Shown one piece after another: positions 1,455-28,843 of a DNA stretch of 64,000 nt. This DNA comes from an uncultured Verrucomicrobiae bacterium (lineage in GTDB: Bacteria > Verrucomicrobiota > Verrucomicrobiia > Limisphaerales > UBA11358). Positions within the stretch are counted from its first letter, which is position 1; every line of letters starts with the position of its first letter. Location of the stretch: positions 295,921 through 359,920 of the forward strand of contig CAVTWB010000012.1 of the NCBI GenBank assembly GCA_963738245.1. Reading direction: 5' to 3'. The notes below the pieces were generated by a model. The model was not told where the DNA came from. It did not search any database and saw only the letters and a program-made list of their open reading frames with translations. The position numbers were made by a program, and so were the translations under genes.

Positions 1455-2702
1455 CTATTCAACTTTTAGTTTGGCTTCCAGCAAGCGCGGCCGGCGCTCG
1501 TGCAACGGCAGCCAGATGCGGAACGTCGTGCCGCGACCGACATGGCTTTCCAGTTCGATGCGGCCGTTATGGGCGCGCACGATGCGCTGCACAATCATCA
1601 GACCGAGGCCGCTGCCTTTTTTCTTGGTCGTGTAAAATGGTTCGAAAATCCGGTTGATCTGCTCCTGCGGAATGCCGCCGCCGTTGTCGGCCACGCTCAC
1701 CCAAACGCCGTCGTCGTTCTCGCCGGTTTGCAGCGCCAGCGTGCCGCCCCTCGTCATCGCCTGCATCGCATTTTTGACAAGGTTGACCAGAACCTGCTGC
1801 AATTGCATCGGGTCAACCGGCGCGGCGGCCAGCCGTCGCGCAAGTTTTGTCGTCACCGTCAGCCCGCGATTTTCCAGTTCCGGTCGCAGCAATTCCAAAG
1901 TTTTTTCGACCACGTCGTTGAGCGAATGCGGCTGAAGCTGCGGCGGCACGGGCCGGATCGCCTGGAGAAATTGCGTGATGATGTAATCGAGCCGGTTGAT
2001 TTCGCCCTTCGCCACGTCGAGATATTTTTCGAGCCGTCCGGAGATGTCCGCCGTGTCGGCTTCGACCACCAGATTCTGCGAACGCGGACGCGAAACCCGT
2101 TTTGAGCCGTCCGCGCCGGCCTTGAGTTTTTTCACCTCGCGCTCCATGAGCTGCAGATGAATGTGCAGCGCGTTGAGCGGATTGCCGATTTCGTGCGCCA
2201 CGCTCGCCGCGAGCAGCGTGAGCGCCTGCACCCGCTCGCTTTCGATGGCTTCAAAAGTTTTTTGCCGCGCCTCGGTCGCGTCGTGCAAAATCAGCGCCAC
2301 GCCGGAGCTGCCCTTCGCCTCGCCGTCGAGCGGCGCGGCGTAAAGCCGCAGAAAACGCGGACGCGGATAACTTACTTCGAACTCGTGCCGCAAGACGTGC
2401 GCGCCGCCTTCGCGGTCGAAGCGCGAAATTTTTCCCCAGTCCAGTTCCGGCAGGAAGCGTCCGACCGGCTGGCCTTCGTCACCAGCCTGCAAGCCCAGCA
2501 GGCCGGTCACGGCCTGGTTGAAATAAACGATGCGCCCCTGCTCGTCGGCCACCAGCACGCCGTCTTCAATCGTGTTGAACAGGGTTTCGAGAAAATTTCG
2601 TTCGTGCGCCAGCCGCTGAACCACCGTCTGCAACCCTTCCGCGTCCAGCCGCCCGATGCGGCCTAGCACTTTGTCGAGAAAACTGGATTTGATTGAAGCC
2701 AT
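1455..2702 (-). CDS. sensor histidine kinase (PAS-like + HisKA + HATPase_c), partner of the downstream response regulator
   Basis: 415-aa ORF. H-box AASVAHEIGNPLNAL, N-box LVNLVKNAMQAM, G-boxes DNGGGIP and GSGLGL. Sits directly upstream of the RR on the same strand. Confidence 0.85.
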   Translation of the reverse strand: MASIKSSFLDKVLGRIGRLDAEGLQTVVQRLAHERNFLETLFNTIEDGVLVADEQGRIVYFNQAVTGLLGLQAGDEGQPVGRFLPELDWGKISRFDREGGAHVLRHEFEVSYPRPRFLRLYAAPLDGEAKGSSGVALILHDATEARQKTFEAIESERVQALTLLAASVAHEIGNPLNALHIHLQLMEREVKKLKAGADGSKRVSRPRSQNLVVEADTADISGRLEKYLDVAKGEINRLDYIITQFLQAIRPVPPQLQPHSLNDVVEKTLELLRPELENRGLTVTTKLARRLAAAPVDPMQLQQVLVNLVKNAMQAMTRGGTLALQTGENDDGVWVSVADNGGGIPQEQINRIFEPFYTTKKKGSGLGLMIVQRIVRAHNGRIELESHVGRGTTFRIWLPLHERRPRLLEAKLKVE

Positions 2703-7617: not shown

Positions 7618-7646
7618 TTGACACATTGACTCCGCCTGCCTACTGT
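7618..7646 (+). promoter_or_regulatory. candidate sigma-70-type promoter for korAB
   Basis: TTGACA, 17 nt, TACTGT, about 80 nt upstream of the korA ATG. Motif match only. Confidence 0.25.
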
Positions 7647-7725
7647 TATGAGGCAACAGTGTCGTGCTGTCCGTTACAACTGCCAGCCCACTTTGCACGC
7701 GGTAAATTTTTAAATTTGAGTTTCC

Positions 7726-9549
7726 ATGAGTGATACAATCGAACAGGCGTTGTCGTCGAACGGCGCGCAGAAAGTGGCGCGGATCAGCGAAGTGGTGATC
7801 CGCATCGCCGGCAATTCGCAGGACGGCATCCAGGCCATCGGCGGTTTTCTCGCGCGGCTCGCCGGCCGCAGCGAACAGGAAGTCATGACGTTCATGACCA
7901 TTCCCGCCACGATTTCCGGCGGCGCCTCCATCTTCCAGGTCCGCATGGGCAGCGGCGAGGTTTTGAGCGCCGGCGACGAAGCGGATGTGCTGCTCGCGTT
8001 TTACCAGCACAGCTACGAGGCCCATATTGGCGGTCTCAAAAAAGGCGGCATCGTGCTTTACGATTCCGACCACGTCGTGCCGAACGAAGAGTGGAAGAAA
8101 AATTATCACCACCTCGGCATTCCGATTTCCGGCCTGACGGTCGAGGCCATCGGCGGCACGGCCAAGGACAAGGGGAAAAATATTTTCGCCCTCGGCCTCA
8201 TCGCCAAGATGTTCGACCTGAACCTGCCGAAACTTGAACAGCTCATCGCCGAACGGTTCACCGGCAAGGATCCGAGCATTTTGAACAACGCGCTCGCCGC
8301 GTTTCATGCCGGCCACGCCAACCCGCTCGGCAACGTGCTGGAAACTTTCAAGTTCGTGGACAGCCAGAAAAAGGACGGCCATCAGGTCGTGATGAACGGC
8401 AACGAGGCGCTCGGCTACGGCCTCATCGCCGCCGGCGTGCGTTTCGGCGCGGGCTATCCCATCACGCCGTGGTCGGACATCATGGAACTGCTCCGCCGCG
8501 AACTGCCGAAATACGGCGGCTGCTTCATCCAGACCGAGGACGAAATCGCCGCCATCTCGATGGCCATCGGCGGCAGCTACGCCGGGCGCGTCGCGGTGAC
8601 CGGTTCGAGCGGGCCGGGCATTTCGCTCAAGACCGAGGCGCTCGGCTGGGCCATCATGGCGGAAATGCCGCTCGTCGTCATTGACGTCCAGCGCGGCGGG
8701 CCTTCGACCGGAATGCCGACGAACATCGAGCAGTCCGATTTGAACATCGCCGTCAACGGCGGCCACGGCGACGCGCCGCGCGTCGTCATCGCGCCGGCAA
8801 ACGTCGAAGATTGTTTTTACATGGCGATTGAAGCCGTCAACATCGCCCGCAACTATTCCGTGCCGGTGGTTTTGCTGACCGACCAGGGCATCGCCACGCG
8901 CATCGAGGCGTTTGTGGAGCCGAACCTCGAAAAAGTTTGCCAGGACATTACGCCGGATTTCGCGCCGGTGGCCGACCACAAGCCTTACGATTTGTCGGCG
9001 CCCAACGGCATTTCGCATCACGTCCCGCCGGGCACCAAAATTGACAGCGGAAAGTATCCCATCGTCACCGGCCTCGAACACGACGAACTCGGCCATCCGA
9101 CCGGCTCGCCGAAACTGCACATGCAGATGACCGCCAAACGCCGCAGGAAATTGCAGGCGCTCGGCGCGACGCTGCCGGTGCCGAAAATCTACGGCCCGTC
9201 CGAAGGAAATGTTTTGCTCGTCGGCTGGGGTTCGACCGAAGGCCCGATCAAGGAGGCCGTGGACCGCGCCCGCGCCGGCGGCGACAGCGTTTCCTCAATT
9301 CATTTGCGCCACATCAATCCGCTGCCGGACGGGCTGGAAAATATTTTCTCCGGCTTCAATCATGTGCTCGTCGTCGAGATGAACGACGAGGGGCTTTACG
9401 GCTTCGGCCAGCTCGGCGCGATTCTGCGCGCCCGCTATTGCGATCCGAAAATCCAGGGCATCAACAAGACCGACGGCCTGACCTGGAAGGTGAAGGAAAT
9501 CCTTGAACGCACCAAAACCAACCTGTCCGCCGGTTTGAGCAAAATTTGA
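7726..9549 (+). CDS. korA: 2-oxoacid:ferredoxin oxidoreductase, fused gamma/alpha subunit
   Basis: 607 aa. N-terminal gamma-like domain, then GNEALGYGLIAAGVRFGAGYPITP and GSSGPGISLKTEALG. Paired with a TPP-binding beta subunit. Confidence 0.9.
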   Translation: MSDTIEQALSSNGAQKVARISEVVIRIAGNSQDGIQAIGGFLARLAGRSEQEVMTFMTIPATISGGASIFQVRMGSGEVLSAGDEADVLLAFYQHSYEAHIGGLKKGGIVLYDSDHVVPNEEWKKNYHHLGIPISGLTVEAIGGTAKDKGKNIFALGLIAKMFDLNLPKLEQLIAERFTGKDPSILNNALAAFHAGHANPLGNVLETFKFVDSQKKDGHQVVMNGNEALGYGLIAAGVRFGAGYPITPWSDIMELLRRELPKYGGCFIQTEDEIAAISMAIGGSYAGRVAVTGSSGPGISLKTEALGWAIMAEMPLVVIDVQRGGPSTGMPTNIEQSDLNIAVNGGHGDAPRVVIAPANVEDCFYMAIEAVNIARNYSVPVVLLTDQGIATRIEAFVEPNLEKVCQDITPDFAPVADHKPYDLSAPNGISHHVPPGTKIDSGKYPIVTGLEHDELGHPTGSPKLHMQMTAKRRRKLQALGATLPVPKIYGPSEGNVLLVGWGSTEGPIKEAVDRARAGGDSVSSIHLRHINPLPDGLENIFSGFNHVLVVEMNDEGLYGFGQLGAILRARYCDPKIQGINKTDGLTWKVKEILERTKTNLSAGLSKI

Positions 9550-9568
9550 TTTTTACCGTCAATTATAT

Positions 9569-10513
9569 ATGAGCGAAACTTTGACCGAAACTCCGCCCGC
9601 CAGCCTTGCCGTTGTCAACGCGCCCGCGCCCGCCACCACGGAGCGCAAGGGGCTGACCAAAAAGGAAATCGCCGCCGACCATCCGACGTGGTGTCCCGGC
9701 TGCGGCGACTTCTCCGTGCTCGCGCTTTACTTCAAGCTGATTGAAAAGCGCAAGATGTGGCACGAGAAAATCACCACCATCGCCGGCATTGGCTGTTCCA
9801 GCCGCTTCCCGTATTTCGTGCAGGCGCACGGCGCGCATTTCATCCACGGGCGCGCATTGCCGTTCGCCAGCGGCATATCACTGTCGCGGCCCGACCTGCA
9901 TGTCTTCGTGTTCGGCGGCGACGGCGACGCGTTTTCCATCGGCGGAAATCATTTCACCCACACCGCGCGCAAAAACATCAAGCTGACCTATTGCGTCATG
10001 GACAACTGGGTTTACGGTCTGACGAAAAAACAGACCTCGCCCACGTCGCCGCTCGGTTTCAAGAGCAAGACCGACCAGTGGGGCGCGGTGGATTATCCGA
10101 TCAACCCGATGAAACAGGCGATCGCCGCCGGTGCCACGTTCGTCGCGCGCACGACGCACACGAATCCGAACCACGTTTTGCAGATGATGGAAGCCGCGAT
10201 GGACCACGACGGCTTCAGCTTCATCGAATGCCTGAGCGAATGCGTGGAATTTTACGAGGGCGCGTTCGACGCCAGCAACCCGCGCAAGGGCGGCGTGTTC
10301 AACGAAGTCCCGAAAAACCACGACGTGACCGACGAAGTCGCGGCCTACAAGCTGGCTGGCGCGGATTTCCCCGGCTACTTCGGCATTTTCTACAAGAGCA
10401 ACAAGCCGACGAAGAACGCCAAGGAGGCGGAGATCATCAAGTCGTATCAGAGCAAGGTCGCCGGCCTGAAAGACTGGCAGATTCTCCAGAAGAACTTCGA
10501 CAAGATGAAATAG
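9569..10513 (+). CDS. korB: 2-oxoacid:ferredoxin oxidoreductase, beta (TPP-binding) subunit
   Basis: WCPGCGDFSVL and FGGDGDAFSIGGNH motifs. 20 nt downstream of korA. Confidence 0.9.
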   Translation: MSETLTETPPASLAVVNAPAPATTERKGLTKKEIAADHPTWCPGCGDFSVLALYFKLIEKRKMWHEKITTIAGIGCSSRFPYFVQAHGAHFIHGRALPFASGISLSRPDLHVFVFGGDGDAFSIGGNHFTHTARKNIKLTYCVMDNWVYGLTKKQTSPTSPLGFKSKTDQWGAVDYPINPMKQAIAAGATFVARTTHTNPNHVLQMMEAAMDHDGFSFIECLSECVEFYEGAFDASNPRKGGVFNEVPKNHDVTDEVAAYKLAGADFPGYFGIFYKSNKPTKNAKEAEIIKSYQSKVAGLKDWQILQKNFDKMK

Positions 10514-10542
10514 TCGTCATTTACGGTCTGCGACATCCGATT

Positions 10543-10580
10543 TACGAGCCTGCGGATTTTTCCCGGGCTCGTATTTTTTT
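10543..10580 (+). terminator. rho-independent terminator after korB
   Basis: TACGAGCC / GGCTCGTA 8-bp stem with a 15-nt loop, followed by T7. Confidence 0.55.
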
Positions 10581-10618
10581 ATGGCGCGTCCATCGTAAAT
10601 CATCAATCGTCAATCCCG

Positions 10619-11140
10619 ATGGCCCACATCCACGAAAAAATTGATTTCACCGTCGCGATCTTTGTCGTTCACGACGGGAAGATTCTGCTCATCCACCATC
10701 GCAAGCTCGGCAAGTGGCTGCCGCTCGGCGGGCACATCGAGCTGGACGAAGATCCGGAGCAGGCGGCGCTCCGCGAGGCGAAGGAGGAGAGCGGCCTCGA
10801 CGTGGAACTGCTCGGCGAACGCCCGCCCACGACCTCGCCCGGCACCCGCGCGCTCATCGCGCCGCGATTTCTCGACATCCATCGCATCAGCGACACGCAC
10901 GAGCACATCGGCATGATTTATTGGGCGCGGCCCAAACGTGGCGGCGGCGCCCCCGCCGCCGAACTTCAGCTTGCCGCCGAGGAGCATCACGACATCCGCT
11001 GGTGCAGCCGCGACGATCTGGACAAACTGTCGCCGCCGATGAGCGACGCGGTGAAATGGTATTGCCGACAGGCCATTGAGGAGATTTCCCGCCATGAACG
11101 CGTAAATCCCGCGCCGTCTGCTACACCATCGAGGGGCTGA
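10619..11140 (+). CDS. NUDIX hydrolase
   Basis: Nudix box GGHIELDEDPEQAALREAKEESGL. Confidence 0.85.
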   Translation: MAHIHEKIDFTVAIFVVHDGKILLIHHRKLGKWLPLGGHIELDEDPEQAALREAKEESGLDVELLGERPPTTSPGTRALIAPRFLDIHRISDTHEHIGMIYWARPKRGGGAPAAELQLAAEEHHDIRWCSRDDLDKLSPPMSDAVKWYCRQAIEEISRHERVNPAPSATPSRG

Positions 11141-12249
11141 ACTCCTTCGCGACCGTCATCTTTTTCAACTACCTTTACTTCCTGTTCCGCGACCGGTTCG
11201 GGTTCAACGACAAGGAAAACCTCGCGCTCGCCTCGCTCATCGGCCTGATTTACATGTTCGCCTCGTGGCAGGCCGGGCGGATCGCGCAACGCTGCGGCCA
11301 TTTCACCGCGCTGAAAACCGGGTTTGGCATCATGATCGCCGGGCTGGTCGTCGGCTCGCAGCTTCACTCGATGGCCGGCGAAATTGCCGCCGCGTGCGTC
11401 GTGAACATCGGCATGTGTTTCATCTGGCCGGTGCTCGAGGCGCTCGTGAGCGAGGGCGCGAACGCCGCGCGCGCCGTGGGCATCTACAACATCACCTGGG
11501 CCGCCGCCAATGCCTCCGCCTATTTCATCGGCGGCACGCTCATCGTGACGTTCGGCTACCAGAGCATGTTTTATCTGCCCCTCGCCTTTATCGTGATTCA
11601 ACTGGCGCTGGTGTTCTGGCTAGAAAAAATCCACGGTGCCGCCGTCGGCGAACCCGGTGAGCTGTTGCCGCACGACGCCAACCGCCCGTCGCCGGCGCGC
11701 GCCAAAAATTTCCAGCGCATGGCGTGGCTGGCGAATCCGTTCGCCTACATCGCCATCAACACGCTGCTCGCCGTCATTCCCGGCATCGCCGCGAAGTTTC
11801 AGATGTCGCCCATGCTGGCGGGATTTGTCTGCTCGCTCTGGTGCTTCGTGCGGCTCGGCACGTTCGTGCTGCTGTGGCGCTGGCCCGGCTGGCACTACCG
11901 GTTCCGCTGGCTGGTGACGGCGTTTGCGCTGCTCATCCTCTCCTTCGCGGCCATTCTCGTCGCGCCCAATCTGGCCGTGCTGGTCGCGGCGCAAATCTTC
12001 TTCGGCGCGGCCATCGGGCTGATTTATTATTCGTCGCTGTTCTACTCGATGGACGCGAGCGACACCAAGAGCGAGCACGGCGGCATCCACGAGGCGGCCA
12101 TCGGCGCGGGAAATTTCGTCGGCCCGGCGGTGGGCGCGGCGGCGTTGCAGTTCGCGGCCCAAAGTCCCAACGCCGGGGCCTATGCCGTGAGCGGCCTGCT
12201 GCTGTGCGGCCTCGGCGGACTCGTGATGATCCGGCGGCTGGCGCGGTAG
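11094..12249 (+). CDS. MFS transporter; 5' end appears frame-broken (uninterrupted ORF only from 11254)
   Basis: Track ORF 11254..12249 is multi-TM. The same frame is open back to 11098 and encodes a first TM helix (YTIEGLNSFATVIFFNYLYFLF) with no ATG/GTG/TTG. ATG AAC GCG at 11094 would join it if T11103 were absent. Confidence 0.7.
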
Positions 12250-13248: not shown

Positions 13249-13454
13249 TCCAACTCTATGCCAAGCCATCCATCCAGGGCACAAATTTGCACGTTAATTC
13301 CTACAAAATTGCCGTCAGAATGCAAAAAGTTGCTGCCGGAACACAAATCATTGTCCGCGTAATACAAAAGTCTGGAGTAATTCTTTGATAAATAATTGGA
13401 AAAGGCTGATAGGGCGGGCAGTCCTCTGCTCTCTGCAACGTGGGCTGTCGAAAA

Positions 13455-13548
13455 GCGGCAGAAGGCTGCCGCACTCCAAGACGCTCCGCGCAATCCGGTG
13501 GCGACCGACCATCGCCTCGCGTCTTGGAGTGCTACAGCTCCTTGTAGC
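13455..13548. repeat. three adjacent hairpins upstream of thrS (REP-like element or leader structure)
   Basis: GCGGCAG-aagg-CTGCCGC (13455-13472). A perfect 14-bp stem GCACTCCAAGACGC / GCGTCTTGGAGTGC (13471-13484 / 13519-13532). GCTACA-gctcct-TGTAGC (13531-13548). Confidence 0.6.
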
Positions 13549-13629
13549 TTTGCCGGCGGAGCGGCGCGCGTGGTCGTGGTGGCAGGTTTTCACTTACTTT
13601 CCCGGCGCCTTTGTGGTTACATTTCCCTC

Positions 13630-15744
13630 ATGTCTGCTGAACAAGAGAATCAACCGCCGCCCGCGCCGCCCAACCCGGAGCGCAAAACTCTCGACGACCG
13701 CGCGAAGATGACCGAATTGGAACGCATCCGGCATTCCGCTGCGCACGTCATGGCTACCGCCATCCTGCGGCTTTGGCCCGAGGCGCAATTCGCCGCCGGG
13801 CCGCCGGTCGAGAATGGATTTTACTACGACGTGGATTTGCCGCACCGCATCTCGCCGGAGGATTTCGCAGCCATCGAGGCCGAGATGAAAAAGGAAATCA
13901 AGGCGAACAACGTCTTCGAGAAAATCGTCGTCACGCGCGAGCAGGCGCTGAAGGATTCCGAGAGCGGACGGCTCGGCGGCCTGACCGAGCGTCCGGGCAA
14001 TCCGAGCAAGTTCAAGATCGGCAACCTCGAAGCCATTCCCGAGGGCGAGCAGATCACGTATTTCAAGAACGGCGATTTCGTTGACCTGTGCGCCGGGCCG
14101 CACGTGATGCGCACCGGCAACATCGGCGCGTTCAAGCTCACCAGCGTGGCCAGCGCGTATTACAAGGGCGACGAGCGCAACCCGCAGCTCCAGCGCATCT
14201 ACGGCACGGCGTTCAAGAACAAGACCGCGCTCGACGAGTATTTCAAGATGATCGAGGAGGCCAAGCGCCGCGACCATCGCAAGATCGGCGCGGAGATGGG
14301 GCTGTTCGCGATTGACACGGAATACGTCGGGCCGGGCCTGCCGCTGTGGCTGCCAAAGGGCACGGCCATCGTCGAGGAACTGGAGAAATTGGCGAAGGAA
14401 ACGGAATTCGCCGCCGGTTATGTGCGCGTGAAAACGCCGCACATCGCGCGGGAGAAAATGTATTTAACTTCCGGTCATTTGCCGGTGCTTTATGCGGAAT
14501 CAATGTTTCCGCCGATGCGTCTAAATATTGAAGGTGGGCAACAGGCAGCCCTTACCGAGTTGAAATCCACTCTTGGCGCGGAAGACAAGAAATTCATAGA
14601 AGGGTTTGAGGAACTGCATCCAGAATTTGCAAAAGGCGCGCAGACAACTATTGAATTCCGAGATCGCCTTACTAGCTATTTAAAAAATCTGTCTCCAGAA
14701 GATCGAAAAGGATTCGAGGAGTCTGCACTCAACAAGTGGACAATTGATCTCACGCTGGCCCGTTTCGGTGAAGAGCGTTACTACCTCAAGGCCATGAACT
14801 GCCCGCATCATCACCGCATTTTTGCGGCGGAACCGCGCAGTTACCGCGATCTGCCGTTGCGGCTGGCCGAATACGGCACCTGCTACCGCTACGAGCAGTC
14901 GGGCGAATTGTTCGGCCTCATGCGCGTCCGCTCGCTCAACATGAACGACGCGCACATCTATTGCACGCCGGAGCAGTTCGCCGCCGAGTTCAACGCCGTC
15001 AACGAAATGTATCTGAAGTATTTCAAGATTTTCGGCATCGAGAAATACGTCATGCGCTTCAGCACGCACGACCCGTCGCGCCTGACCGGCGACAACGCCA
15101 AGTTCGTCAACGAACCGGAATTGTGGAAGCAGACGGAGGATATGGTCCGCAAGGTTTTGATTGATTCGAAGATTCCCTACGTGGAGGTGCCGAACGAGGC
15201 GGCGTTTTACGGGCCGAAGATTGACGTGCAGGTCTGGAGCGTCATCGGCCGCGAATTCACGCTGGCGACTAACCAGGTGGACTTCGCCGTGCCGCGGAAA
15301 TTCGGCCTGGTCTATCGCGACAAGGACAACACGGACAAGACGCCGCTGTGCATCCATCGCGCGCCGCTGGGCACGCACGAGCGGTTCATCGGCTTCCTCA
15401 TCGAGCATTACGCCGGCAATTTCCCGCTCTGGCTCGCGCCGGAACAGGTGCGCGTGATGACCATCGGCGAGGAGGAGCCACTGGTGAATTACGCCAAGGC
15501 CATCGTGAGCGAGCTTCGCGCCAGTTTCGTCCGCTGCGAATCGGATTTCTCGTCGAACAAAATCAACGGCAAGATTCAGGAGGCGGAGCAGGCGAAAGTC
15601 CACACGATGCTCGTCATCGGCGGCCGCGACATGGACGCCGGAAATGTTTCCGTCCGTCTGCACGGCAAGGGCAACATCGGCGCGAAGCCGAAGGGCGAAG
15701 TCGTGGCTGAAATCCTGCAGGCAATCAAAGACCGGCGGGCATGA
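13630..15744 (+). CDS. thrS: threonine--tRNA ligase, with an atypical insertion of about 87 codons in the catalytic core
   Basis: Start trimmed to MSAEQEN. Editing/second-additional-domain motif ERIRHSAAHVMATA. Also RDHRKIG, YYLKAMNCPHHHRIF, SYRDLPLRLAEYGTCYRYEQSGELFGLMRVRSLNMNDAHIY, and the anticodon-binding C-terminus. Confidence 0.9.
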   Translation: MSAEQENQPPPAPPNPERKTLDDRAKMTELERIRHSAAHVMATAILRLWPEAQFAAGPPVENGFYYDVDLPHRISPEDFAAIEAEMKKEIKANNVFEKIVVTREQALKDSESGRLGGLTERPGNPSKFKIGNLEAIPEGEQITYFKNGDFVDLCAGPHVMRTGNIGAFKLTSVASAYYKGDERNPQLQRIYGTAFKNKTALDEYFKMIEEAKRRDHRKIGAEMGLFAIDTEYVGPGLPLWLPKGTAIVEELEKLAKETEFAAGYVRVKTPHIAREKMYLTSGHLPVLYAESMFPPMRLNIEGGQQAALTELKSTLGAEDKKFIEGFEELHPEFAKGAQTTIEFRDRLTSYLKNLSPEDRKGFEESALNKWTIDLTLARFGEERYYLKAMNCPHHHRIFAAEPRSYRDLPLRLAEYGTCYRYEQSGELFGLMRVRSLNMNDAHIYCTPEQFAAEFNAVNEMYLKYFKIFGIEKYVMRFSTHDPSRLTGDNAKFVNEPELWKQTEDMVRKVLIDSKIPYVEVPNEAAFYGPKIDVQVWSVIGREFTLATNQVDFAVPRKFGLVYRDKDNTDKTPLCIHRAPLGTHERFIGFLIEHYAGNFPLWLAPEQVRVMTIGEEEPLVNYAKAIVSELRASFVRCESDFSSNKINGKIQEAEQAKVHTMLVIGGRDMDAGNVSVRLHGKGNIGAKPKGEVVAEILQAIKDRRA

Positions 15745-20376: not shown

Positions 20377-21075
20377 TCAGTCTGATGGATTGTTTTCGAA
20401 CTTCTGCTTAAACACATCAATCCATTTTTCTTCATTCCTATAAACTGTGGAGGGATTGATTTCGATTGTAGCAATGTCGCGTAATTTCTCTTTAATTTTT
20501 TCAAACCGAGCACTCGGCATTGTCTGACTGATTGTAATTTTTGTGATTATCGTCTCAATGTTATCAATCTTTATCTCATGGTGATTTTTATCTCCCTCCC
20601 AAATGACTCGGAATTCCTTTTCAAATCTATAAGGCCATCGTTTTATAAATGGAAGCATTTCAACGCAGTCATCTATTGTTCCATCATTAATTTCTTCAAA
20701 TCTCTTATACACAACTGAACCGAATCTCAAATTATCACCATCGTTTTTGCGTGAAAATAACAATTTTATTAGTTCGGTTTTGTCGAATTCAATGCAGCAT
20801 CCAGATATTCCATTTGCAAAAGCCTTCCAGTGATGAATTGTTTCGTGTTCCTTAAGAAAACATAGTGCTAAAAGACTTTTTGCAGGTTCAGATTGGCTGC
20901 AACTACTTATCTTTCTTTTTCGATAAATCTCCAAAAGTTCTGTATCGTTTTCATCATCCCAAAATTTTGGATCTGAAAAAACAAGACTCTTTTTTTTCAA
21001 CATGCGCAACAATACTGGAAGCGTTGTAAATCTGTTTAATTTTGTGAAAGCGGTTTCGGTTGACATATAGCGCAA
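20377..21075 (-). CDS. DUF2971-like protein
   Basis: N-terminal LNRFTTLPVLLRMLKKKSLVFSDPKFWDDENDTE and central LCFLKEHETIHHWKAFANGISGCCIEF resemble DUF2971 signature blocks (from memory, no HMM run). Confidence 0.55.
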   Translation of the reverse strand: MRYMSTETAFTKLNRFTTLPVLLRMLKKKSLVFSDPKFWDDENDTELLEIYRKRKISSCSQSEPAKSLLALCFLKEHETIHHWKAFANGISGCCIEFDKTELIKLLFSRKNDGDNLRFGSVVYKRFEEINDGTIDDCVEMLPFIKRWPYRFEKEFRVIWEGDKNHHEIKIDNIETIITKITISQTMPSARFEKIKEKLRDIATIEINPSTVYRNEEKWIDVFKQKFENNPSD

Positions 21076-21078
21076 ATG

Positions 21079-22221
21079 TTATGGAGCTGGAAACTGAACT
21101 GCCACGTTAGAAGAATTTGCTGTGATGAGGTTGTCATTACTCAACATCACTTGCATCTCCGATTTTCCGTCTGAATGAACTCGAACCAGCCAAAAATACT
21201 CTTCAGTCTTGTCTGAAACTTCTCTTTGAGCTTGCGCTACTAAAAAAAATTCGCCTTTTGTGGGTAATTGAAATAAAAACTTTCCATCTGCATCCGTTTT
21301 AGCTAATGCGATTGGAGTTGGCAAATTGCCAAAATAAATTGGGGTTGTGGATACCAACTCTGCAACTCATCTCGTATGGTTTGCAATTCGTCTGTTACAG
21401 TTTTCAATTCGTCGTTTATGGGTTCCAATGAGCATCTAAAGGCAATTTTTGGTTTGTTAACTGGCCTTCTAAACGAGGAACTAACTCGGCTAATTTGGCT
21501 TCTAAAACCTCTTGAGAATTTGTGTAGCCATCGGATTCGTCACTGGTCTTTTGCCATTCTTGGCGCAAGCGGTCTTCTTCGCTAACTTGCTTTAAATAGT
21601 CAGGATATAATCGCTCATGTGACGAGTCCCATTTCGACTGCATTTCCAAAATCGTTTTTTTCTTACTTTCCAGCTTTTGCGCCTCCTCTTGCATCGAGGC
21701 CAATAAAGAACTATCACCATGTTCGCTATACCAAACATAGCTTCCAAAGTGGTTTCATTACACCGTAAATCTGGCCGGTTAAATCCCACCTACTTTCTTT
21801 TTATCGGACCAAATCTTGGCATATTGGATTTTCAAGTGTCCAGTCAAAAGTAGCATTATTATATTTCTCTCTGATGCGTTCTTGTTGTTGCTTTATTTCA
21901 TTTGTAGATTTGTCTTCCAAATCGGCCTCGTCTTTTTCCAAATCAGCTTTCGTCTTTTCCAAGCTATCTCTCTTATTTTCTAAATCGTTTTTTGATTTTT
22001 TTTAATCAGCCCTGTTTTTTTCAAGTAGGCCGTAGTTATTGCATTGCATGATTCAATTTGCTGTTGGTCAAAAATGGAAATTGGAACAAGATAACGCTTT
22101 AGATTTTCACCGCTTTTCGTTACAATGAAAACACTTCCGTCAATTTTTTCTTCCCTCGGGGAACAGCCAGCAAAAGCAATGAAATAAGAAAAAGACCAAT
22201 AAACAATCTTGCAAATTTCAT
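21079..22221 (-). pseudogene. decayed lipoprotein gene (signal peptide, coiled coil, carboxypeptidase-regulatory-like C-terminus) split over at least 5 frames
   Basis: MKFARLFIGLF at 22221 joins ..YFIAFAGCSPREEKIDG (lipobox) only via a frame change in a T-run. KNDLENKRDSLEKTKADLEKDEADLEDK, MASMQEEAQKLESKKK.. and TDADGKFLFQLPTKGEFFLVA follow in other frames. Confidence 0.55.
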
Positions 22222-22372
22222 ATTGATTTGCAGATTGAAACGCCAATTGCCCCAATCGTCCATCCCAAAATGAAAACCGGAAAAGAGACCGCTGCCCCTG
22301 CGGAATTCAGATTGCGCTGTCAATAAAACAGACAACCCTGTTCCAACCTTTGGACACCGGGGCCATTTCCAT

Positions 22373-22640
22373 GACCATGGAAAACATTTCGTTGACCATG
22401 GAGCTTGGAAATGGTCATCGGAAACTTTCGTTGACCATCGGAGCCGTGGAAATGGTCATGGAAATCTTTTCCTTGACCATGGAAACTTTCAATGGTCATG
22501 GAAATGTTTTCGTTGACCATGGGAACCTTTTAAATGGTCATGGAAATGGTTTCGTTGATCATGTAAACCGTTTACATGGTCATGGAAATGTTTTCCTTGG
22601 TCATGGAAACCTTTTGGATTTCTTGGTCATCGAAATGGCC
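22373..22640. repeat. 13 tandem units of about 21 bp, consensus G[AG][CT]CATGGAAA(C/T)nTTTCnnT
   Basis: Core starts at 22373, 22394, 22413, 22433, 22454, 22475, 22494, 22515, 22536, 22557, 22578, 22599, 22625. Units alternate TGACCAT and its complement ATGGTCA. Confidence 0.85.
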
Positions 22641-22908
22641 TGAAACCCTCCCCCCCCTTGCTTCAAAGCGGGATTTTGCCATCACAACACATTTTTAACC
22701 AGTAAAACGGGCGTTTGCTGACGTTTACGAAACATTTATAGAAGTAATTACGATAAGGAATTAACAGATTAACAGGCTGGATGTGGAATGGTGCAAATGT
22801 GAATGGCATAGCCTGATGCTAACGAGCAGTCATTAAGGTTCAACAACTGAACCGAGGAAAAAATAAAAATGAAATAAAGATTAAAACACGAAATCGAAAA
22901 TAAAAACT

Positions 22909-23576: not shown

Positions 23577-26500
23577 TTATTCACCATCATTGTTGCCGCC
23601 GTTTTTCTTTTCCCAACTGCGCCGCGCCTTTTCCGGCAGGCTGGTGTCCACTTTCGCGTAGTAAGTCTCCTCGCCGAACAGCTTGTTGGCGGCGTGCTCC
23701 AGTTCCAGCGACGGCGCGACGCTGAACCGCTCGTTCGTGTCCATGAAAACCGTTCCGCCGCCCGGTCGCATGAAGCACAACAGCAACGGGCATTTGCCGG
23801 GATGCGCGGCGACGAGTTCCTGAATCTTGATCATGTCGTCCGGCTGCAGATGCGCCGAGTGCAGGCGCAGATGAACCTGCTTGGTGTATTTTTTCGGCGC
23901 GTCGGTGAGCGGCAGGATTTCCTGCGGGAAAATCTTCGGCTTGTCCTCGCCGGTGCTGACTTCGCCGATGACGAGAATCGCCTTGTTCGCTTCGAGCAGC
24001 GGACGGAACTTGTCGTAGTCGTTCATCACGAGCAGTTGCACCGAGCCTTCCAAATCCTCCAGCGTCACCATCGAATACGGCTTGCCGGATTTTTTGGAGA
24101 AGCCGTGCGTGACCGCCGCGATCATGCCGCCGATGCGCGTCAAACTGCGGTTCGGCAGCTCGGCGAGCTTCGCGGTGTTCGTGAGCGAATATTTTTCCAG
24201 CAGCGGCACCAGCGGCGTCAGCGGATGGCCGGTGACGTAAAATCCGAGCAGCTCTTTTTCGTGCGCGAGCAGTTCGTGCTGCGGCCATTCCGGCAGATTG
24301 GAAATCGCCTCCGGCATCGGCGGCGCTTTTTCTTCCAGCGCGCCGAAGAGCGAGCTTTGCCCTTTTTGCTTGTCGGACAAAATGCTCGCCGCGCGCGCCA
24401 TCGTGCGCTCGATTTGTGCGAACAGCGTCGCCCGCGACTGGCCGAAACAATCGCACGCGCCGGTTTTGATCAATGCTTCCAACGGTTTTCGCGTGAGCGT
24501 GCGCCCGTCCACACGCTCGCACAAGTTCGGAAAGCGTCTTGAATTTTCCGCCTTCGTTGCGCGCCTTCAAGATGGTTTCAACGGCGGCCTCGCCCACGCC
24601 CTTGATGGCCGCGATGCCGAAACGGATGCGCTGTTGTGATAGTGGGACAGGCGTCCCGCCTGTCGTGTTGCCTTGGTATTTATCTTTGGAACTGGACAGG
24701 CGGGACGCCTGTCCCACTATGGCTGCGGGCAGGCTCGCAGTCATTCCTGCTCCGAGTCGGAAATTTTTTCCAGACAAACCGGCCTTGCTTGGATTTTCCT
24801 GAATATAGTGTCCGAATTTTTCCAGGCTGGCCTCATCGCGGACAATGTGATCGAAAGATTCGTCCTGCCAGAATTCGCCTTCGCGCCCCAGAAACTTGTT
24901 GGCCTCGTGGGCCGTAAATGATTTCCAAGCGTGCAAAATATCGGAGAGCTTGTGTTCCATCAGCGGCCGGACGATGAGGTGGACATGGTTTGGCATGATG
25001 ACGTAGCTGCCCAAAACATAGCGCTCGCCATCGAAATGGCGCAAGGCATTCTCGACCATGTCAGCCACATCGGGATTTTTCAGCCAGCACGCACCGTGAG
25101 CGTCATCCAACTGCGACTCCATCTGTTCGCGGAATTCTTCCATGACGGGTTCGGAGGCTGCACCGGCGGTGCGCACCGCCGCTTCGCGTTCCTGCTTCCA
25201 TCGGATGTAAACTTCGTTCGGCAGCGAATCAGCCAGCCGGAATGTTACGAAATAGGTTGCCCCGTCCTGCCGCCAATGCGGCAGGTGCCGGCTTTCAATG
25301 CTCGCAGGACGGGATTTGTCGAAGGGCGTGAACGGCAGTGGGACGGGCTGTAGTGGGACAGGCGTCCCGCCTGTCGAGTTCGTGTTTTGGAGTTTTCCTT
25401 TTTCAAAATCTTCTTTGGAACTGGACAGGCGGGACGCCTGTCCCACTACCGATGCGGGCGCAAAAAACACGCCGCTCTCGTTCACGTCCGGGCCGAGCAC
25501 CTCGATGTCGAACTCGCGCGCCTCGGCGATGTATTCGGCGAGCTTGTCCGTGTTCGCCATGTCGTTCGTCATCATGGCGCAGAAAAATTCCACCGGATAA
25601 TTCGCCTTCAGATACGCGGTCTGATACGCGACGATGGCATACGCGGCGGCGTGCGATTTGTTGAAACCGTAGCCGGCGAATTTTTCCAGCAAGTCGAAAA
25701 TTTGGTTTGCCTTCGTCTTCGGAATATTGTTTTTCTCGTGGCAGCCCTTGACGAAATCCTCGCGCTGCTTGGCCATTTCCTCGACCTTTTTCTTGCCCAT
25801 CGCGCGCCGCAGCAAATCCGCCTTGCCGAGCGAGTAGCCGGCGAGCAACTGCGTCGCCTGCATCACCTGCTCCTGATAAATCAGGATGCCGTAGGTCTCC
25901 TTGGAAATGGATTCGAGCAGCGGATGCTCGTATTTGATCTCGATCTCGCCGTGGCGGCGCTTGATGAAATCAGGAATCAGATCCATCGGGCCGGGCCGAT
26001 ACAGCGCGACGAGCGCCGTGATGTGCTCGACGGAACTGATCTGGAATTTTTTGCACAGGTCGCGCATCCCGCCGGATTCCAACTGGAACACGCCGAGCGT
26101 TTCCGCGCGGTTCAGCAGGTCGTAGGTTTTTTTGTCGTCGAGCGGCAACTGGTCAATGTTGATCTGCACGCCGTGCGTTTGCTTGACCATCTCGCAGGTG
26201 TTGCGGATGACGGTCAACGTTTTCAGCCCGAGAAAATCCATCTTCAGCAGGCCGAGGTCGCCGACGGGATTCATCGCGTATTGCGTGACGATGCCGCCAT
26301 GTTCGTCCAGCTTGAGCGGCAGCAAATTCACCAGCGGCTGGTCGCCGATGACCACGCCGGCCGCATGAACACTGGCATTGCGCGTGAGGTCTTCGAGGAT
26401 GAGCGCGGTGTCAATCAGCTCGCGCGTGACTTCTTCGGTCTCGTAAGCCTCCTTGAATTCCGGCGACTGCTTGAGCGCCTTCGTCAAATCCATTTTCAGA

Positions 26501-28759
26501 TCGAACGGAATCATTTTCGCCAGCCGGTCGCAGTCGCCATACGGCAAACCCATCACGCGGCCGACATCGCGCACGACGGATTTTCGCGCCCATCGTGCCG
26601 AACGTGATGATCTGCGCGACAGAATCATTGCCATATTTTTTGCGGACATATTCGATGACGTCAGCGCGGCGGTCGTCGGCGAAATCAATATCAATATCGG
26701 GCGGATTAACGCGCTCGGGATTGAGAAATCGCTCGAACAGCAGGCCGTAGCGGATCGGATCCACGTTCGCGATTTCGAGCAGGTAGGTGACAATCGAACC
26801 GGCGGCGCTGCCGCGCGCCACGCAGGCAATGCCCTGGCTGCGGCCATAGCGGATGAAATCGCCGACGATGAGAAAGTAGGAAATGAAACCCGTCTTCTCG
26901 ATGACCGTGAGTTCGAGCTGCAAGCGGTCAATGACCGTTTTGACGGCAGCGGCAACGGCGGGATCGTTGGTTAGTGGCACAGGCGTCTCGCCTGTGTGTT
27001 TCTGTTTTTCATCGCACAGGCAGGACGTCTGTGCCACTAAACCGCCGCCGACACGGTATGCCCCTTCGCCCAAACTTGCTTTCTTGGGATTATCTTGAAT
27101 ATACCGGCCAAACTTTTCCAACTGTTGCTCGTTTCTGACGATGTGGTCGAAGGATTCCGGCTGCCAAAATTCTCCCTCACGATTCAGCAGCTTGTTGGCT
27201 TCTTTCGCAGTGAACGATTTCCACGACTGGAGAATGTCAGATAATGTGTGTCCCATCGCTGGCCGCACCAAAACATGGACGTGATTGGGCATGATGACGT
27301 AGCTGCCCAACAAATAGCGTTCACCATCAAAGTGACGCAGCGCAGCCTCCACCATTTTGGAGACGCCAGAATCGCGCAGCCAGCACTCGCCGATGCCTTG
27401 ATCCAAGTGTCGTTCCAACTTTTTCTCGCATTCTTCGGCAATTTTCCCGGCCAGCTCCTGTTTCTCCGCGTCGGAAAGGTTGGCGGCCTGCTTCGCTTCG
27501 CGCAAAGCGGCGTCACGTTCATCACGCCATTGTTTGAAGACTTCCTGCGGCAGTGAATCATCCAGACGGAACGTTACAAAATATGTTGCGCCTTCCTGCT
27601 GCCAATGTGGCAGGGAACGTGAATGAATGCTTGCCGGACGGGTTTGGTCAAACGCGGTGAACGGCATTAGTGGCACAGGCGTCTCGCCCGTGTGTTTCTG
27701 TTTTTCGTCACACAGGCGGGACGCCTGTGCCACTACATTATACGTCGGCAGCCGCTTCGGATCATCAATGCCCGTGACGACAAATTCTTTTCCTTCCGCC
27801 TTCGCGTGAATCGTGTAGCGCGTGAACAGTCCTTCCGCCAGCCATTGCCGCAAAAAACCTTCGCGCGTGAAATGTTCCGGCGGATGAAACACCGGATAAT
27901 GCAGCTGGCCGAACTTGATTTCCAAATTGCATTTCTCGGCAACCTCCATCGTGTTCTTCACCGCCTCCGGCACCTCGGCGAAACGCGCCTTCATTTCGTC
28001 TGCGCTGCGCAGATAAAACTGTTCCGGCACATAGCCCGCGCTCATGCGCTTGGGGTCGCTCAACAGGGATTGCGTGCCGATGCAGACGAGACAATCGTGC
28101 GCGTGCGAATGGCTTTTCTCGATGTAATGGACGTCATTCGTCGCGACGAGCTTCAGGCCGAATTCCTTTGGCCAATTTGAATCAACTGCTTGATTGACCT
28201 TGGCCTGTTCGGGAATGCCGTGGTTTTGGAGTTCGAGGAAAAAATTTTCCGCGCCGAGCGTCTGCTTGAAGAAATCCACCGCATCGCGCGCCTTGTCAAT
28301 TTGATCCTTCATGATCAAATCGGGAATCTCGCTGGCGAGACAACCGGACATCGCGATCAGACCTTCGCTGTGCTGCGCCAAAATTTCCTTGTCAATGCGC
28401 GGCTTGTAATAATAGCCCTCCAGGTGCGCGGCGGTCGTGAGCTTGATGAGATTTTTGTAGCCGGTCTCGTCCTTCACCAGCAGGCCGAGATGATGATACT
28501 TGTCGCCCTCGACTTTTTTGCGTTCCAGCCGCGAGCCGGGCGCGACATAAACCTCGCAGCCGATGATGGGCTTGATGCCTTTCGCGCGCGCGGCCTGATA
28601 AAACTCGATCACGCCGTGCATCGCGCCGTGGTCGGTGATGGCGAGCGCGGGAAATTTCAGCTCATGCGCCCGCTCCATCAATCTGTCCAAACGGCACGCG
28701 CCATCGAGCAACGAATACTCGGTGTGCAAATGAAGATGGACAAAGTCAGCGTGCGACAT
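23577..28759 (-). CDS. dnaE: DNA polymerase III alpha subunit, interrupted by two in-frame HUH-transposase cassettes and two 1-nt frame breaks
   Basis: PHP domain HLHLHTEYSLLDG. GFISYFLIVGDFI, ARGSAAGS, FLNPERVNPPDIDIDF, ITFGTMGAK|SVVRDVGRVMGLPYG, FNKSHAAAYA, IAAIKGVGEAAVETIL, and OB/C-terminal region. Assembled from track ORFs 26411..28759, 23587..26955 and 23577..24524. Confidence 0.9.
24642..24717. repeat. REPIN-like nested palindrome, type A (cassette 2, DnaE-distal side)
   Basis: Perfect 23-nt arms GTGGGACAGGCGTCCCGCCTGTC / GACAGGCGGGACGCCTGTCCCAC with a 30-nt loop. Each arm is itself a hairpin GACAGGCG-nnn-CGCCTGTC. Confidence 0.9.
25353..25446. repeat. REPIN-like nested palindrome, type A (cassette 2, DnaE-proximal side)
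   Basis: Same perfect 23-nt arms with a 48-nt loop. A partial extra copy AGTGGGACGGGCTG lies at 25338-25351. Confidence 0.9.
26974..27037. repeat. REPIN-like nested palindrome, type B (cassette 1, distal side)
   Basis: GTGGCACAGGCGTCTCGCCTGTG .. CACAGGCAGGACGTCTGTGCCAC. 23-bp stem with 1 mismatch and 2 G-T pairs. Loop of about 18 nt. Confidence 0.85.
27670..27733. repeat. REPIN-like nested palindrome, type B (cassette 1, proximal side)
   Basis: GTGGCACAGGCGTCTCGCCCGTGTG .. CACACAGGCGGGACGCCTGTGCCAC. Differs from the 26974 copy at 5 of 64 positions. Confidence 0.85.
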
Positions 28760-28843
28760 GAAACCAGTTTAACTTCCAACCGCCGAGACACCAAGACGCA
28801 AAGTTTCGCCACAAAGAGTTTTCCACTGTGTCCTGGCGGTGAA

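Follow-up and report, generated by a model that had tools for sequence, protein, structure and literature searches.

DNA polymerase III alpha (DnaE) is encoded on the minus strand of a 64-kb stretch of DNA, hereafter the window, from an uncultured Verrucomicrobiae bacterium of the lineage UBA11358 (contig CAVTWB010000012.1, assembly GCA_963738245.1). Here, we report that this dnaE gene holds two in-frame, stop-free cassettes, each composed of a gene for a putative REP-associated tyrosine transposase (RAYT) between two REPINs, which are inverted doublets of a repetitive extragenic palindromic (REP) hairpin. Comparison with relatives, in which the same two sites are found empty, filled with a lone REPIN or filled with a full cassette, shows that the DnaE::RAYT architecture is real and recurrent. 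RAYTs of the same clade are also found in frame in many other host genes, and embedding is the normal residence of the whole clade in Verrucomicrobiota and some other phyla rather than a speciality of DnaE. We consider it probable that the cassettes are resident REPtrons (a RAYT with its REPs and REPINs) adapted for read-through by the host ribosome, and that the clade lives as translated internal domains of host proteins.

Structure of dnaE and its two cassettes

The coding sequence of dnaE is carried by three minus-strand open reading frames (ORFs) in three frames (28759-26411, 26955-23587 and 24524-23577), over which Pfam finds the domains of DnaE in the order PHP, DNA_pol3_alpha, DNA_pol3_finger, HHH_6 and OB (tRNA_anti-codon). 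With two single-base insertions removed, the gene reads as one ORF of 1726 codons, or 1201 codons minus the cassettes, and the insert-free protein is 96% identical to an intact orthologue of 1200 aa (P0121). That the three ORFs can be joined into a full-length DnaE had been proposed from the letters of the window before any search was made (the sequence-only reading). The domains do follow in the proposed order, and the joining needs the removal of two bases in dnaE that the proposal had left unmentioned. The same reading had described two in-frame, stop-free units of palindrome, RAYT and palindrome at two variable loops, with which the coordinates, frames and hairpin folds agree (Table 1), and its likening of them to RAYT/REPIN systems and to in-frame palindromic elements is apt.

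Table 1. dnaE, its two cassettes and the two frameshifts. Coordinates are window positions; DnaE residues are numbered on the insert-free protein.
Feature	Positions	Strand	Evidence and remarks
dnaE (DNA polymerase III alpha), including both cassettes	23577..28759	-	Pfam and frames
dnaE segment 1, aa 1-341, PHP domain to ..GIDDPKRLPTYN	27737..28759	-	Pfam PHP 3.6e-58
Cassette 1, REPIN-RAYT-REPIN, 765 nt = 255 codons	26972..27736	-	Variable site 1 (after residue 341); in frame, stop-free
5' REPIN of cassette 1, 69 nt	27668..27736	-	Two inverted REPs, GTAG foot; peptide VVAQASRLCDEKQKHTGETPVPL; -31.3 kcal/mol, z -10.2
RAYT-1 coding core, 209 aa	27041..27667	-	HVH 27283-27275; catalytic Tyr codon 27103-27101
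3' REPIN of cassette 1, 69 nt	26972..27040	-	Slight decay, 2 mismatches in one REP; -23 kcal/mol, z -7.4
dnaE segment 2, aa 342-848, palm/thumb/fingers to ..DVNESGVFFAPAS	25450..26971	-	Pfam DNA_pol3_alpha, DNA_pol3_finger
Frameshift 1	26581..26584	-	AAAA where short-read orthologues have AAA (GCG AAA TCC GTC); splits FGTMGAK / SVVRDVGRVMG
Cassette 2, REPIN-RAYT-REPIN, 810 nt = 270 codons	24640..25449	-	Variable site 2 (after residue 848); in frame, stop-free
5' REPIN of cassette 2, 99 nt	25351..25449	-	Peptide VVGQASRLSSSKEDFEKGKLQNTNSTGGTPVPL; -39.7 kcal/mol, z -12.2
RAYT-2 coding core	24721..25350	-	HVH 24987-24979; Tyr codon 24807-24805
3' REPIN of cassette 2, 81 nt	24640..24720	-	-36.2 kcal/mol, z -12.2
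dnaE segment 3, aa 849-1201, HhH/beta-binding region, OB fold, C-terminus	23577..24639	-	Pfam HHH_6, tRNA_anti-codon OB
Frameshift 2	24520..24525	-	One extra base, ~24522, C-TTG-TGC or CTT-G-TGC; splits ..LSEL / CERVDGR

The two cassettes are built alike. Both start with G/TAGTGG in an identical codon phase (gTA Gtg) and end with ..CCACTA, and in the protein they begin with Val-Val or Ile-Val and end with Pro-Leu. The residue that follows (+1) is Thr or Ser in the window and varies among T, S, R and P once relatives are included. The palindromes that flank the RAYTs are inverted doublets of a 24-nt hairpin such as TAGTGGGACAGGCGTCCCGCCTGT, making four REPINs and eight REPs in all, and their sequences are of two types, GGGACAGGCG and GGCACAGGCG. 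When folded as single-stranded DNA (ssDNA), the REPINs reach -23 to -40 kcal/mol, with z of -7 to -12 against shuffles. The 24-mer core of the REP has eight copies in the window, all within dnaE, and none in shuffles.

RAYT-1 has an ATG immediately 3' of its 5' REPIN and lacks a stop codon; RAYT-2 has neither a start nor a stop codon of its own. The lengths of the REPINs (69, 69, 99 and 81 nt) and the periods of the repeats (696, 729 and 711 nt) are all divisible by three. A read-through product is predicted to contain the junction-spanning peptides ..LPTYNVVAQASR, ..TGETPVPLTNDPAVAAAVK, ..FFAPASVVGQASR and ..TGGTPVPLSQQR.

The inserts resemble REP-associated tyrosine transposases

The Pfam model Y1_Tnp (PF01797), a search proposed with the sequence-only reading, matches both inserts with 32.1 and 31.2 bits (gathering cut-off 23). 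The NCBIfam model REP_Tyr_transpos gives 71.5 bits (E 6.6e-20), and the IS200 model gives 19 bits (cut-off 55). Both inserts contain, in conserved order, the motifs LPHW, PNHVH (HUH), FWQxESFDH and YIQxNP (YIQ[DE]NP, with the single catalytic Tyr). The two RAYTs share 64% protein identity, in agreement with the earlier description of them as diverged paralogues that keep the HUH and Tyr motifs.

The AlphaFold2 (AF2) model of cassette 1 (pLDDT 88) has a confident core and low-confidence ends, which are the REPIN-encoded parts. The top match of this model in a Foldseek search of the PDB is 4ER8_A (E 1.1e-6, probability 1.0), the E. coli RAYT bound to a REP hairpin, followed by the TnpA proteins of ISDra2 and IS608. 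Across aligned relatives, the HxH motif and the Tyr are kept in 44 of 44 embedded and 39 of 39 free RAYTs (83/83). Judged from profiles and the predicted fold, the inserts appear to be REP-associated tyrosine (HUH/Y1) transposases in REPIN flanks, i.e. resident REPtrons.

Alleles in relatives and the insertion sites

Alignment with orthologues, which had been suggested as a way to find empty sites, uncovered a series of alleles. The 96%-identical orthologue P0121 is empty at both sites (site 1 reads ..DDPKRLPTFDPQNPNEQEAIKAVIDRLQLEL and site 2 ..VFFAPAREGKAIRFGMAAIKGVG), and so is the locus L002. A lone in-frame REPIN of 23-33 aa is present at site 1, at site 2 or at both in P0125, P0133/L005, P0138, P0238 and P0170. 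The closest DNA relative, L001, is syntenic with the window at 91-94% nucleotide identity and has the orthologous full cassette at site 2 and a lone REPIN at site 1, where its gap relative to the window is exactly 696 nt, or 232 codons. In a lineage that is 88% identical, a lone REPIN at site 1 is combined with a 732-nt RAYT cassette at site 2 in one uninterrupted ORF (L003, L004), and full-length DnaE::RAYT ORFs of 1456-1468 aa from this lineage occur in six independent assemblies (NCBI, ENA and JGI). A RAYT at site 2 is also found in L007, a metagenome-assembled genome (MAG) in GTDB whose DnaE is 80% identical. The cassettes are dispensable for DnaE function. Since the lengths of REPINs and periods are all multiples of three, recombination between two REPINs would remove the RAYT without a shift of frame, with a lone REPIN left behind, as found in the relatives.

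In a HMMER alignment to the Thermus aquaticus Pol III alpha (2HPI, 3E0D), site 2 falls in a gap at the turn FDFKVVG/EEILFGLSAVKNVG (around residue 884), just before the helix-hairpin-helix (HhH) motif IRFGxAAIKGVG. Site 1 lies in an unaligned stretch about 11 residues ahead of the start of the alignment at Taq residue 381. In relatives, site 1 also takes two unrelated types of repeat-encoded insert (P0126, P0138, P0144, P0145, P0162 and P0186), one reading 'VGDEVTRLKS..EPPHVGCY' and the other, of ~60 aa, 'LTPALSPGEREK...LSPLPGGEGQGEG'; the loop at site 1 is a hot spot for several families of palindromic element. As far as the alignments indicate, both sites appear to be permissive variable surface loops. 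The assignment of the two positions to named Pol III domains, after the published structures, is tentative.

Selection, history and dispersal

Cassette 2 of the window and its orthologue in L001 differ by a synonymous divergence (dS) of 0.26-0.36 and a nonsynonymous divergence (dN) of 0.04-0.055, with a ratio (omega) of 0.15, so that purifying selection acts on cassette 2 in the dnaE frame. For the host dnaE, the same pair gives a dS of 0.18 and an omega of 0.06, and omega against relatives is 0.06-0.08. The divergence of cassette 2 is comparable to that of dnaE: it has accumulated in place, at roughly the pace of the gene.

The RAYT of cassette 1, with the REP variant GTGGCAC..., groups with that of the site-2 cassette of L003, and the RAYT of cassette 2, with the variant GTGGGAC..., groups with that of the site-2 cassette of L007. 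The two REP variants differ by a compensatory swap of G-C to C-G in the stem of the REPIN. By this grouping, the RAYTs of the window belong to two old sub-lineages, each with its own REP variant, and the grouping across sites implies that cassettes have moved between the two dnaE sites and have been replaced over time.

The REP family is also a dispersed population, seen in metagenomes: the 24-mer pattern occurs in at least 120 metagenome stretches. Among the 139 matches listed, none lies in dnaE or adjoins a RAYT; 51% are preceded by a G (= GTAG), 41 have an inverted partner within 150 nt and about 53 are within ORFs of 250 aa or more.

RAYTs embedded in other host genes

Cassette 1 has 2851 homologues at E < 1e-5, many of which are single ORFs with host domains (Dtd, Sua5, helicase C, Fer2, LeuRS, SMC and HsdR) and have REPIN-encoded peptides at the junctions between host and RAYT. 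Among GTDB species representatives we found 529 RAYT relatives and examined the best 80, mostly from Verrucomicrobiota and Planctomycetota. When embedding is defined as a stop-free frame that continues for at least 100 aa upstream and/or downstream of the RAYT, 41 of these 80 loci are embedded in a larger ORF, all of them open in frame. Pfam host domains are found on both sides of the RAYT for DnaE, LeuRS (four loci), PriA (two), a DinG-like helicase, an Ile/Val-RS-type enzyme (three loci, two of them cut short by the contig end), CarB (six or seven), HsdR (four or five) and Eco57I/MmeI-type restriction-modification enzymes (five). For IspG, PdxA, a FabA-like protein, adenosine deaminase and DUF1156 the host domain is on one side only, and a few embedded ORFs have no host Pfam match. 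A crude search for exact substrings in the flanks of the 80 RAYTs found REP-like hairpins with a CTAC foot at many loci and none at several of the embedded ones.

A representative library of 1.84 billion proteins contains 2405 matches to the RAYT profile at E < 1e-30. Among the best 150 of these cluster representatives, 65 have 400 aa or more and an internal or terminal match to the RAYT, and 63 of those 65 span 59 Pfam families. The RAYT cores cluster by host gene, and within a host family the cassette is at the same host position across taxa, with REP-encoded flanks that differ. The shared position speaks for a long stay there or for homing to that site. Distinct RAYT lineages have probably long been resident at fixed positions in particular housekeeping or restriction-modification genes, and they have kept their catalytic residues.

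The architecture seen most often in close RAYT homologues has the RAYT fused to the C-terminus of D-aminoacyl-tRNA deacylase (PF02580+PF01797, 360-417 aa). It is represented by P0016, P0252, P0093 and about 40 other clusters, and in it the cassette takes the place of the dtd stop codon. One such protein of 417 aa occurs on 45 contigs, and one NCBI annotation of these fusions is simply D-aminoacyl-tRNA deacylase.

Two frameshifts outside the cassettes

The two single-base insertions, each a +1 frameshift, are in dnaE proper, 388 and 118 nt downstream of the cassettes. At the site of frameshift 1 all short-read relatives have GCGAAATCCGTC, in frame; at that of frameshift 2 the short-read relatives have GAA(CTT or TTG)TGCGAG, likewise in frame. 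The Leu codon at frameshift 2 is read as CTT TGC in L001 and as TTG TGC in L002, and the window resembles a blend of both. L001, an assembly from error-prone long reads, is garbled at the Ser codon of frameshift 1 too (AAAAGTCAGTC). We conclude that both frameshifts are quite probably consensus or polishing errors of the assembly. The sequence-only reading had held that stops or frame breaks in the cassettes, or a second intact dnaE with this copy untranscribed, would speak against it. Both breaks are outside the cassettes and look like assembly errors, and neither a second dnaE nor a third RAYT is present within the 64-kb window.

Programmed +1 frameshifting at both breaks was also considered. 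It is unlikely: neither site is out of frame in any short-read orthologue, a run of four A (A4) falls short of what transcriptional slippage would need, and frameshift 2 is an apparent blend of synonymous Leu codons.

As for L001 itself (ENA ERZ25039592, contig_14084), its dnaE region (7620-12120) contains at least eight single-base indels and its neighbouring genes are split or fused. This pattern is typical of an unpolished long-read assembly, and its gene calls, including the 331-aa P0001, are fragments.

Other features of the window

In the window, dnaE is separated by 85 nt (28760-28843) from a gene for a DegT-type aminotransferase; in relatives, an HMGL-like gene of about 1 kb lies between the two (L001 6853-7554, L002 1930-2940, L003 1930-2937). 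It was either deleted in the lineage of the window or inserted in the relatives. Between the RNase R side and dnaE there is an island of low GC content (~21000-22900; 35-45% GC against 55-65% in the rest of the window), and within it a tandem array at 22376-22615 with a period of 21/42/82 nt and about eight short units (CATGGAAAT.TTTTCGTTGACCATGG..). An imperfect palindromic repeat element at 13452-13551 (+), with arms of AAAGCGGCAGAAGGCTGCCGCACTCCAAGACGC and its reverse complement (33 nt, 76% complementary), belongs to a family other than that of the dnaE REPs; it is located just 5' of the likely start of a threonyl-tRNA-synthetase-like gene, within the mechanical ORF 13396-15744. ARAGORN calls a 94-nt tRNA-Arg(TCG) at 2359-2452 (-), inside the ORF 1455-2702; the call has no Rfam match and is probably a false positive.

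Discussion

To explain how a transposase gene can reside within dnaE, we propose that the host ribosome would read through the cassettes, as RAYTs without stop codons, open REPIN frames and unit lengths in threes would allow. The most likely product would be a DnaE to which flexible linkers, encoded by the REPINs, join one or two additional RAYT domains, and the RAYT would thereby borrow the transcription and translation of its host gene. Cleavage and joining of ssDNA at REP hairpins are established for E. coli TnpAREP, and by analogy the embedded RAYTs may act in the same manner on dispersed REPs and REPINs. Recombination between the flanking REPINs, or the action of the RAYT on them, could turn a full cassette into a single in-frame REPIN, and might also work in the opposite direction. 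Such conversion would explain why empty, lone-REPIN and full-cassette alleles are found among close relatives.

Several observations weigh against this explanation. Joining the three ORFs takes two +1 corrections of the frame in the dnaE of the window, and translation through the cassettes is argued from open frames and purifying selection. Within the 64-kb window and the flanking sequence of the relatives, no REP of the dnaE family lies anywhere but in dnaE, so that a REPIN population in this genome is assumed only. The embedded examples all come from MAGs or metagenomes, and both isolate genomes among the 80 GTDB loci have free-standing RAYTs. The REP_Tyr_transpos score of 71.5 is below the equivalog cut-off of 80. 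The codons of the loop that flanks site 2 differ between alleles, REGKA when empty and S..SQQR when occupied; the insertion event is therefore not reconstructable base by base, and no rules for target sites can be drawn from it.

Could the gene be a plain pseudogene instead, perhaps a very recent one? In that case dnaE would be dead, with two real frameshifts, and colonised by RAYT and REPIN, and a second intact dnaE would be located elsewhere. The two +1 disruptions within 5.2 kb speak for this, and no disruption was found in the other ORF pairs tested in the window: five overlapping ORF pairs are separate complete genes rather than split ones. As the window is otherwise clean, this reading keeps a low probability. 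We regard it as unlikely, since the locus shares its synteny with the one intact dnaE that relatives have and, two bases aside, the gene is 96% identical to intact orthologues, has an omega of 0.06-0.08 and no in-frame stops. That both cassettes are stop-free is not something decay would keep, both frameshift sites resemble consensus chimeras, no second dnaE was found within the window, and six assemblies of other lineages have the architecture as an uninterrupted ORF. An artefact of another kind, in which RAYT cassettes were misjoined into dnaE by way of shared REPIN repeats, is suggested by the fact that such repeats can mislead assemblers and that the window already has two probable consensus errors. 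It is nonetheless exceedingly improbable: the independent assembly L001 has the orthologous cassette at the same site with proportional divergence, DnaE::RAYT is a single ORF in six more short-read assemblies, all independent, and the same architecture recurs in dozens of other host genes.

If the architecture is genuine, the cassettes might still be removed before the protein matures, by precise excision of ssDNA in some of the chromosomes, by processing of RNA at the REPIN hairpins or by proteolysis or a splicing-like reaction, to give a DnaE of normal size. IS608 and ISDra2 are established examples of precise ssDNA excision by a Y1 transposase, the ends encoded by the REPINs are predicted to be flexible and could be accessible to proteases, and the +1 residue after both cassettes of the window is Thr or Ser. 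Against this, +1 is Arg or Pro in relatives, the first residue of the cassette is Val or Ile, the residues at would-be splice junctions are not conserved, and Pfam and Rfam find no Hint/intein domain or ribozyme. Moreover, removal at the level of DNA or RNA would not demand stop-free multiples of three, yet 41 of 41 embedded loci are open in frame. We take removal to be quite improbable.

A further idea, offered by the sequence-only reading, amounts to exaptation: the RAYT domains would benefit the replisome as an HUH nuclease that is anchored to Pol III and so placed at the single-stranded template of the lagging strand. In its favour, enzymes of the IS200/IS605 type work on lagging-strand ssDNA (restated in PMC6006769), several of the hosts are DNA enzymes (DnaE, PriA, DinG-like helicase, HsdR and type IIG restriction-modification enzymes) and the catalytic residues are kept. 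As a specific adaptation of DnaE this idea is not supported: 96%-identical orthologues are empty at both sites and others have only a REPIN remnant of 23-33 aa; sister RAYTs reside in LeuRS, the Ile/Val-RS-type enzyme, CarB, IspG, PdxA, adenosine deaminase, MqnA and Dtd, and these proteins do not touch ssDNA at the fork; and the insert loops are variable and open to unrelated repeat elements too. With empty DnaE alleles at hand and enzymes that do not act on DNA being equally good hosts, a replisome-tethered nuclease is not needed, and we hold it to be very improbable.

The other idea of that reading, an intein-like strategy of hiding, fared better, in part. The RAYT clade is indeed found in frame in many essential genes, at conserved positions and under purifying selection. 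The lethality of imprecise loss, which that idea stresses, covers the matter only by half, because recombination between REPINs can delete in frame and relatives carry lone REPINs; and there is no machinery of an intein, as a Hint domain is lacking and the junction residues are V...L. We lean, though only slightly, towards a broader statement: that a large HUH transposase clade, mainly of Verrucomicrobiota, has over long evolutionary periods occupied an intein-like niche without splicing, as translated and catalytically intact domains with upkeep of their REPINs and in-frame gain and loss, in essential or restriction-modification proteins such as DnaE, PriA, LeuRS, Ile/Val-RS-type enzymes, CarB, IspG, PdxA and HsdR.

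The cassettes have much in common with the known REPtrons, i.e. RAYT/TnpAREP with REP/REPIN (Nunvar 2010; Bertels & Rainey 2011; Ton-Hoang 2012; Messing 2012, PDB 4ER8; Quentin 2018). They encode an enzyme with HUH and Y1 motifs whose best fold match is 4ER8, have GTAG-tagged REP hairpins as inverted doublets on both flanks, and show low copy number, apparent vertical inheritance and a dispersed family of cognate REPs, here in metagenomes. Classical RAYTs, however, are free-standing, extragenic and usually one per genome, whereas those of the window lack a stop codon (and in cassette 2 a start codon), are in frame inside an essential ORF and occur as two paralogues in one gene.

REPs in frame within RAYT genes have already been published (PMC6006769), and in-frame intragenic REPs reach their highest number in the verrucomicrobium Opitutus terrae, with enrichment in genes for replication and repair and for tRNA synthetases (Di Nocera 2013, PMC3733652). 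Like the intragenic REPs and the Rickettsia palindromic elements (RPEs; Ogata 2000/2002; PMC3733652), of which one REP is in the dnaE of R. conorii, the REPINs here are in-frame palindromes that add 20-30 aa, and the lone REPINs of DnaE orthologues are exactly of such a kind. Those elements are short and non-autonomous; the cassettes of the window, in contrast, carry an enzyme gene in frame between two of them (255-270 aa), and this cassette type is conserved under purifying selection. What defines an RPE-type in-frame palindrome is found in the REPIN flanks and the lone REPINs, not in the whole enzyme-coding cassette.

Inteins, for example those in DnaE, DnaB, RecA and RNR, resemble the cassettes in being selfish coding elements in frame inside essential conserved genes, with a phylogeny that follows host gene and site and with empty alleles in close relatives. 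The cassettes differ in that they have no Hint domain, splice-junction residues or homing endonuclease, are located in variable loops instead of conserved active-site motifs and are presumably retained in the mature protein. An intein as such was rejected: Y1_Tnp is the sole Pfam domain of the inserts, and their terminal residues are not the N-terminal Cys or Ser and the C-terminal His-Asn (before Cys, Ser or Thr) that mark an intein. With the insertion sequences IS200/IS605 the cassettes share a Y1 HUH transposase between hairpin-forming ends; they differ from these in the absence of tnpB, in having the same REPIN at both ends in place of distinct left and right ends, and in that the copies are 64% identical and not recent copies of one insertion sequence. 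IStrons also render insertion into genes harmless, by RNA splicing, whereas the cassettes would do so by read-through of an open frame. The IStron was rejected as well: an Rfam scan of the window at gathering thresholds gives one tRNA only and no group I ribozyme.

In the full-text literature (subscription-only literature being outside the scope) and in the main RAYT papers, in-frame nesting of RAYT genes within host ORFs is, as far as we found, not described. From one survey of RAYTs, 'unexpectedly long proteins' were dropped as fusions or annotation errors (Quentin 2018). What appears to be new here is this nesting of RAYTs in host ORFs; in-frame REPs and REPs inside RAYT genes were already known. 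Our findings account for many of the 'fusion' annotations that were dropped by earlier surveys. We would like to point out that annotation pipelines will mis-call such genes by fragment, as D-aminoacyl-tRNA deacylase, DNA polymerase III or transposase.

If our reading is true, residence by read-through would add a third mode of life for mobile elements within genes, after self-splicing introns and inteins, and the cassettes would offer a tractable counterpart to inteins for studying how selfish elements persist in genes. They also provide a natural map of insertion-tolerant loops in DnaE, LeuRS, CarB, PriA and others. If the fusions are made, bacteria tolerate transposase domains of 250 aa in enzymes of core metabolism, in tRNA synthetases and in the polymerase that replicates their DNA. 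A transposase family would then have solved both its expression and its persistence by joining essential host ORFs, which would revise the view of RAYTs and REPINs, usually described as single-copy, extragenic 'domesticated' genes.

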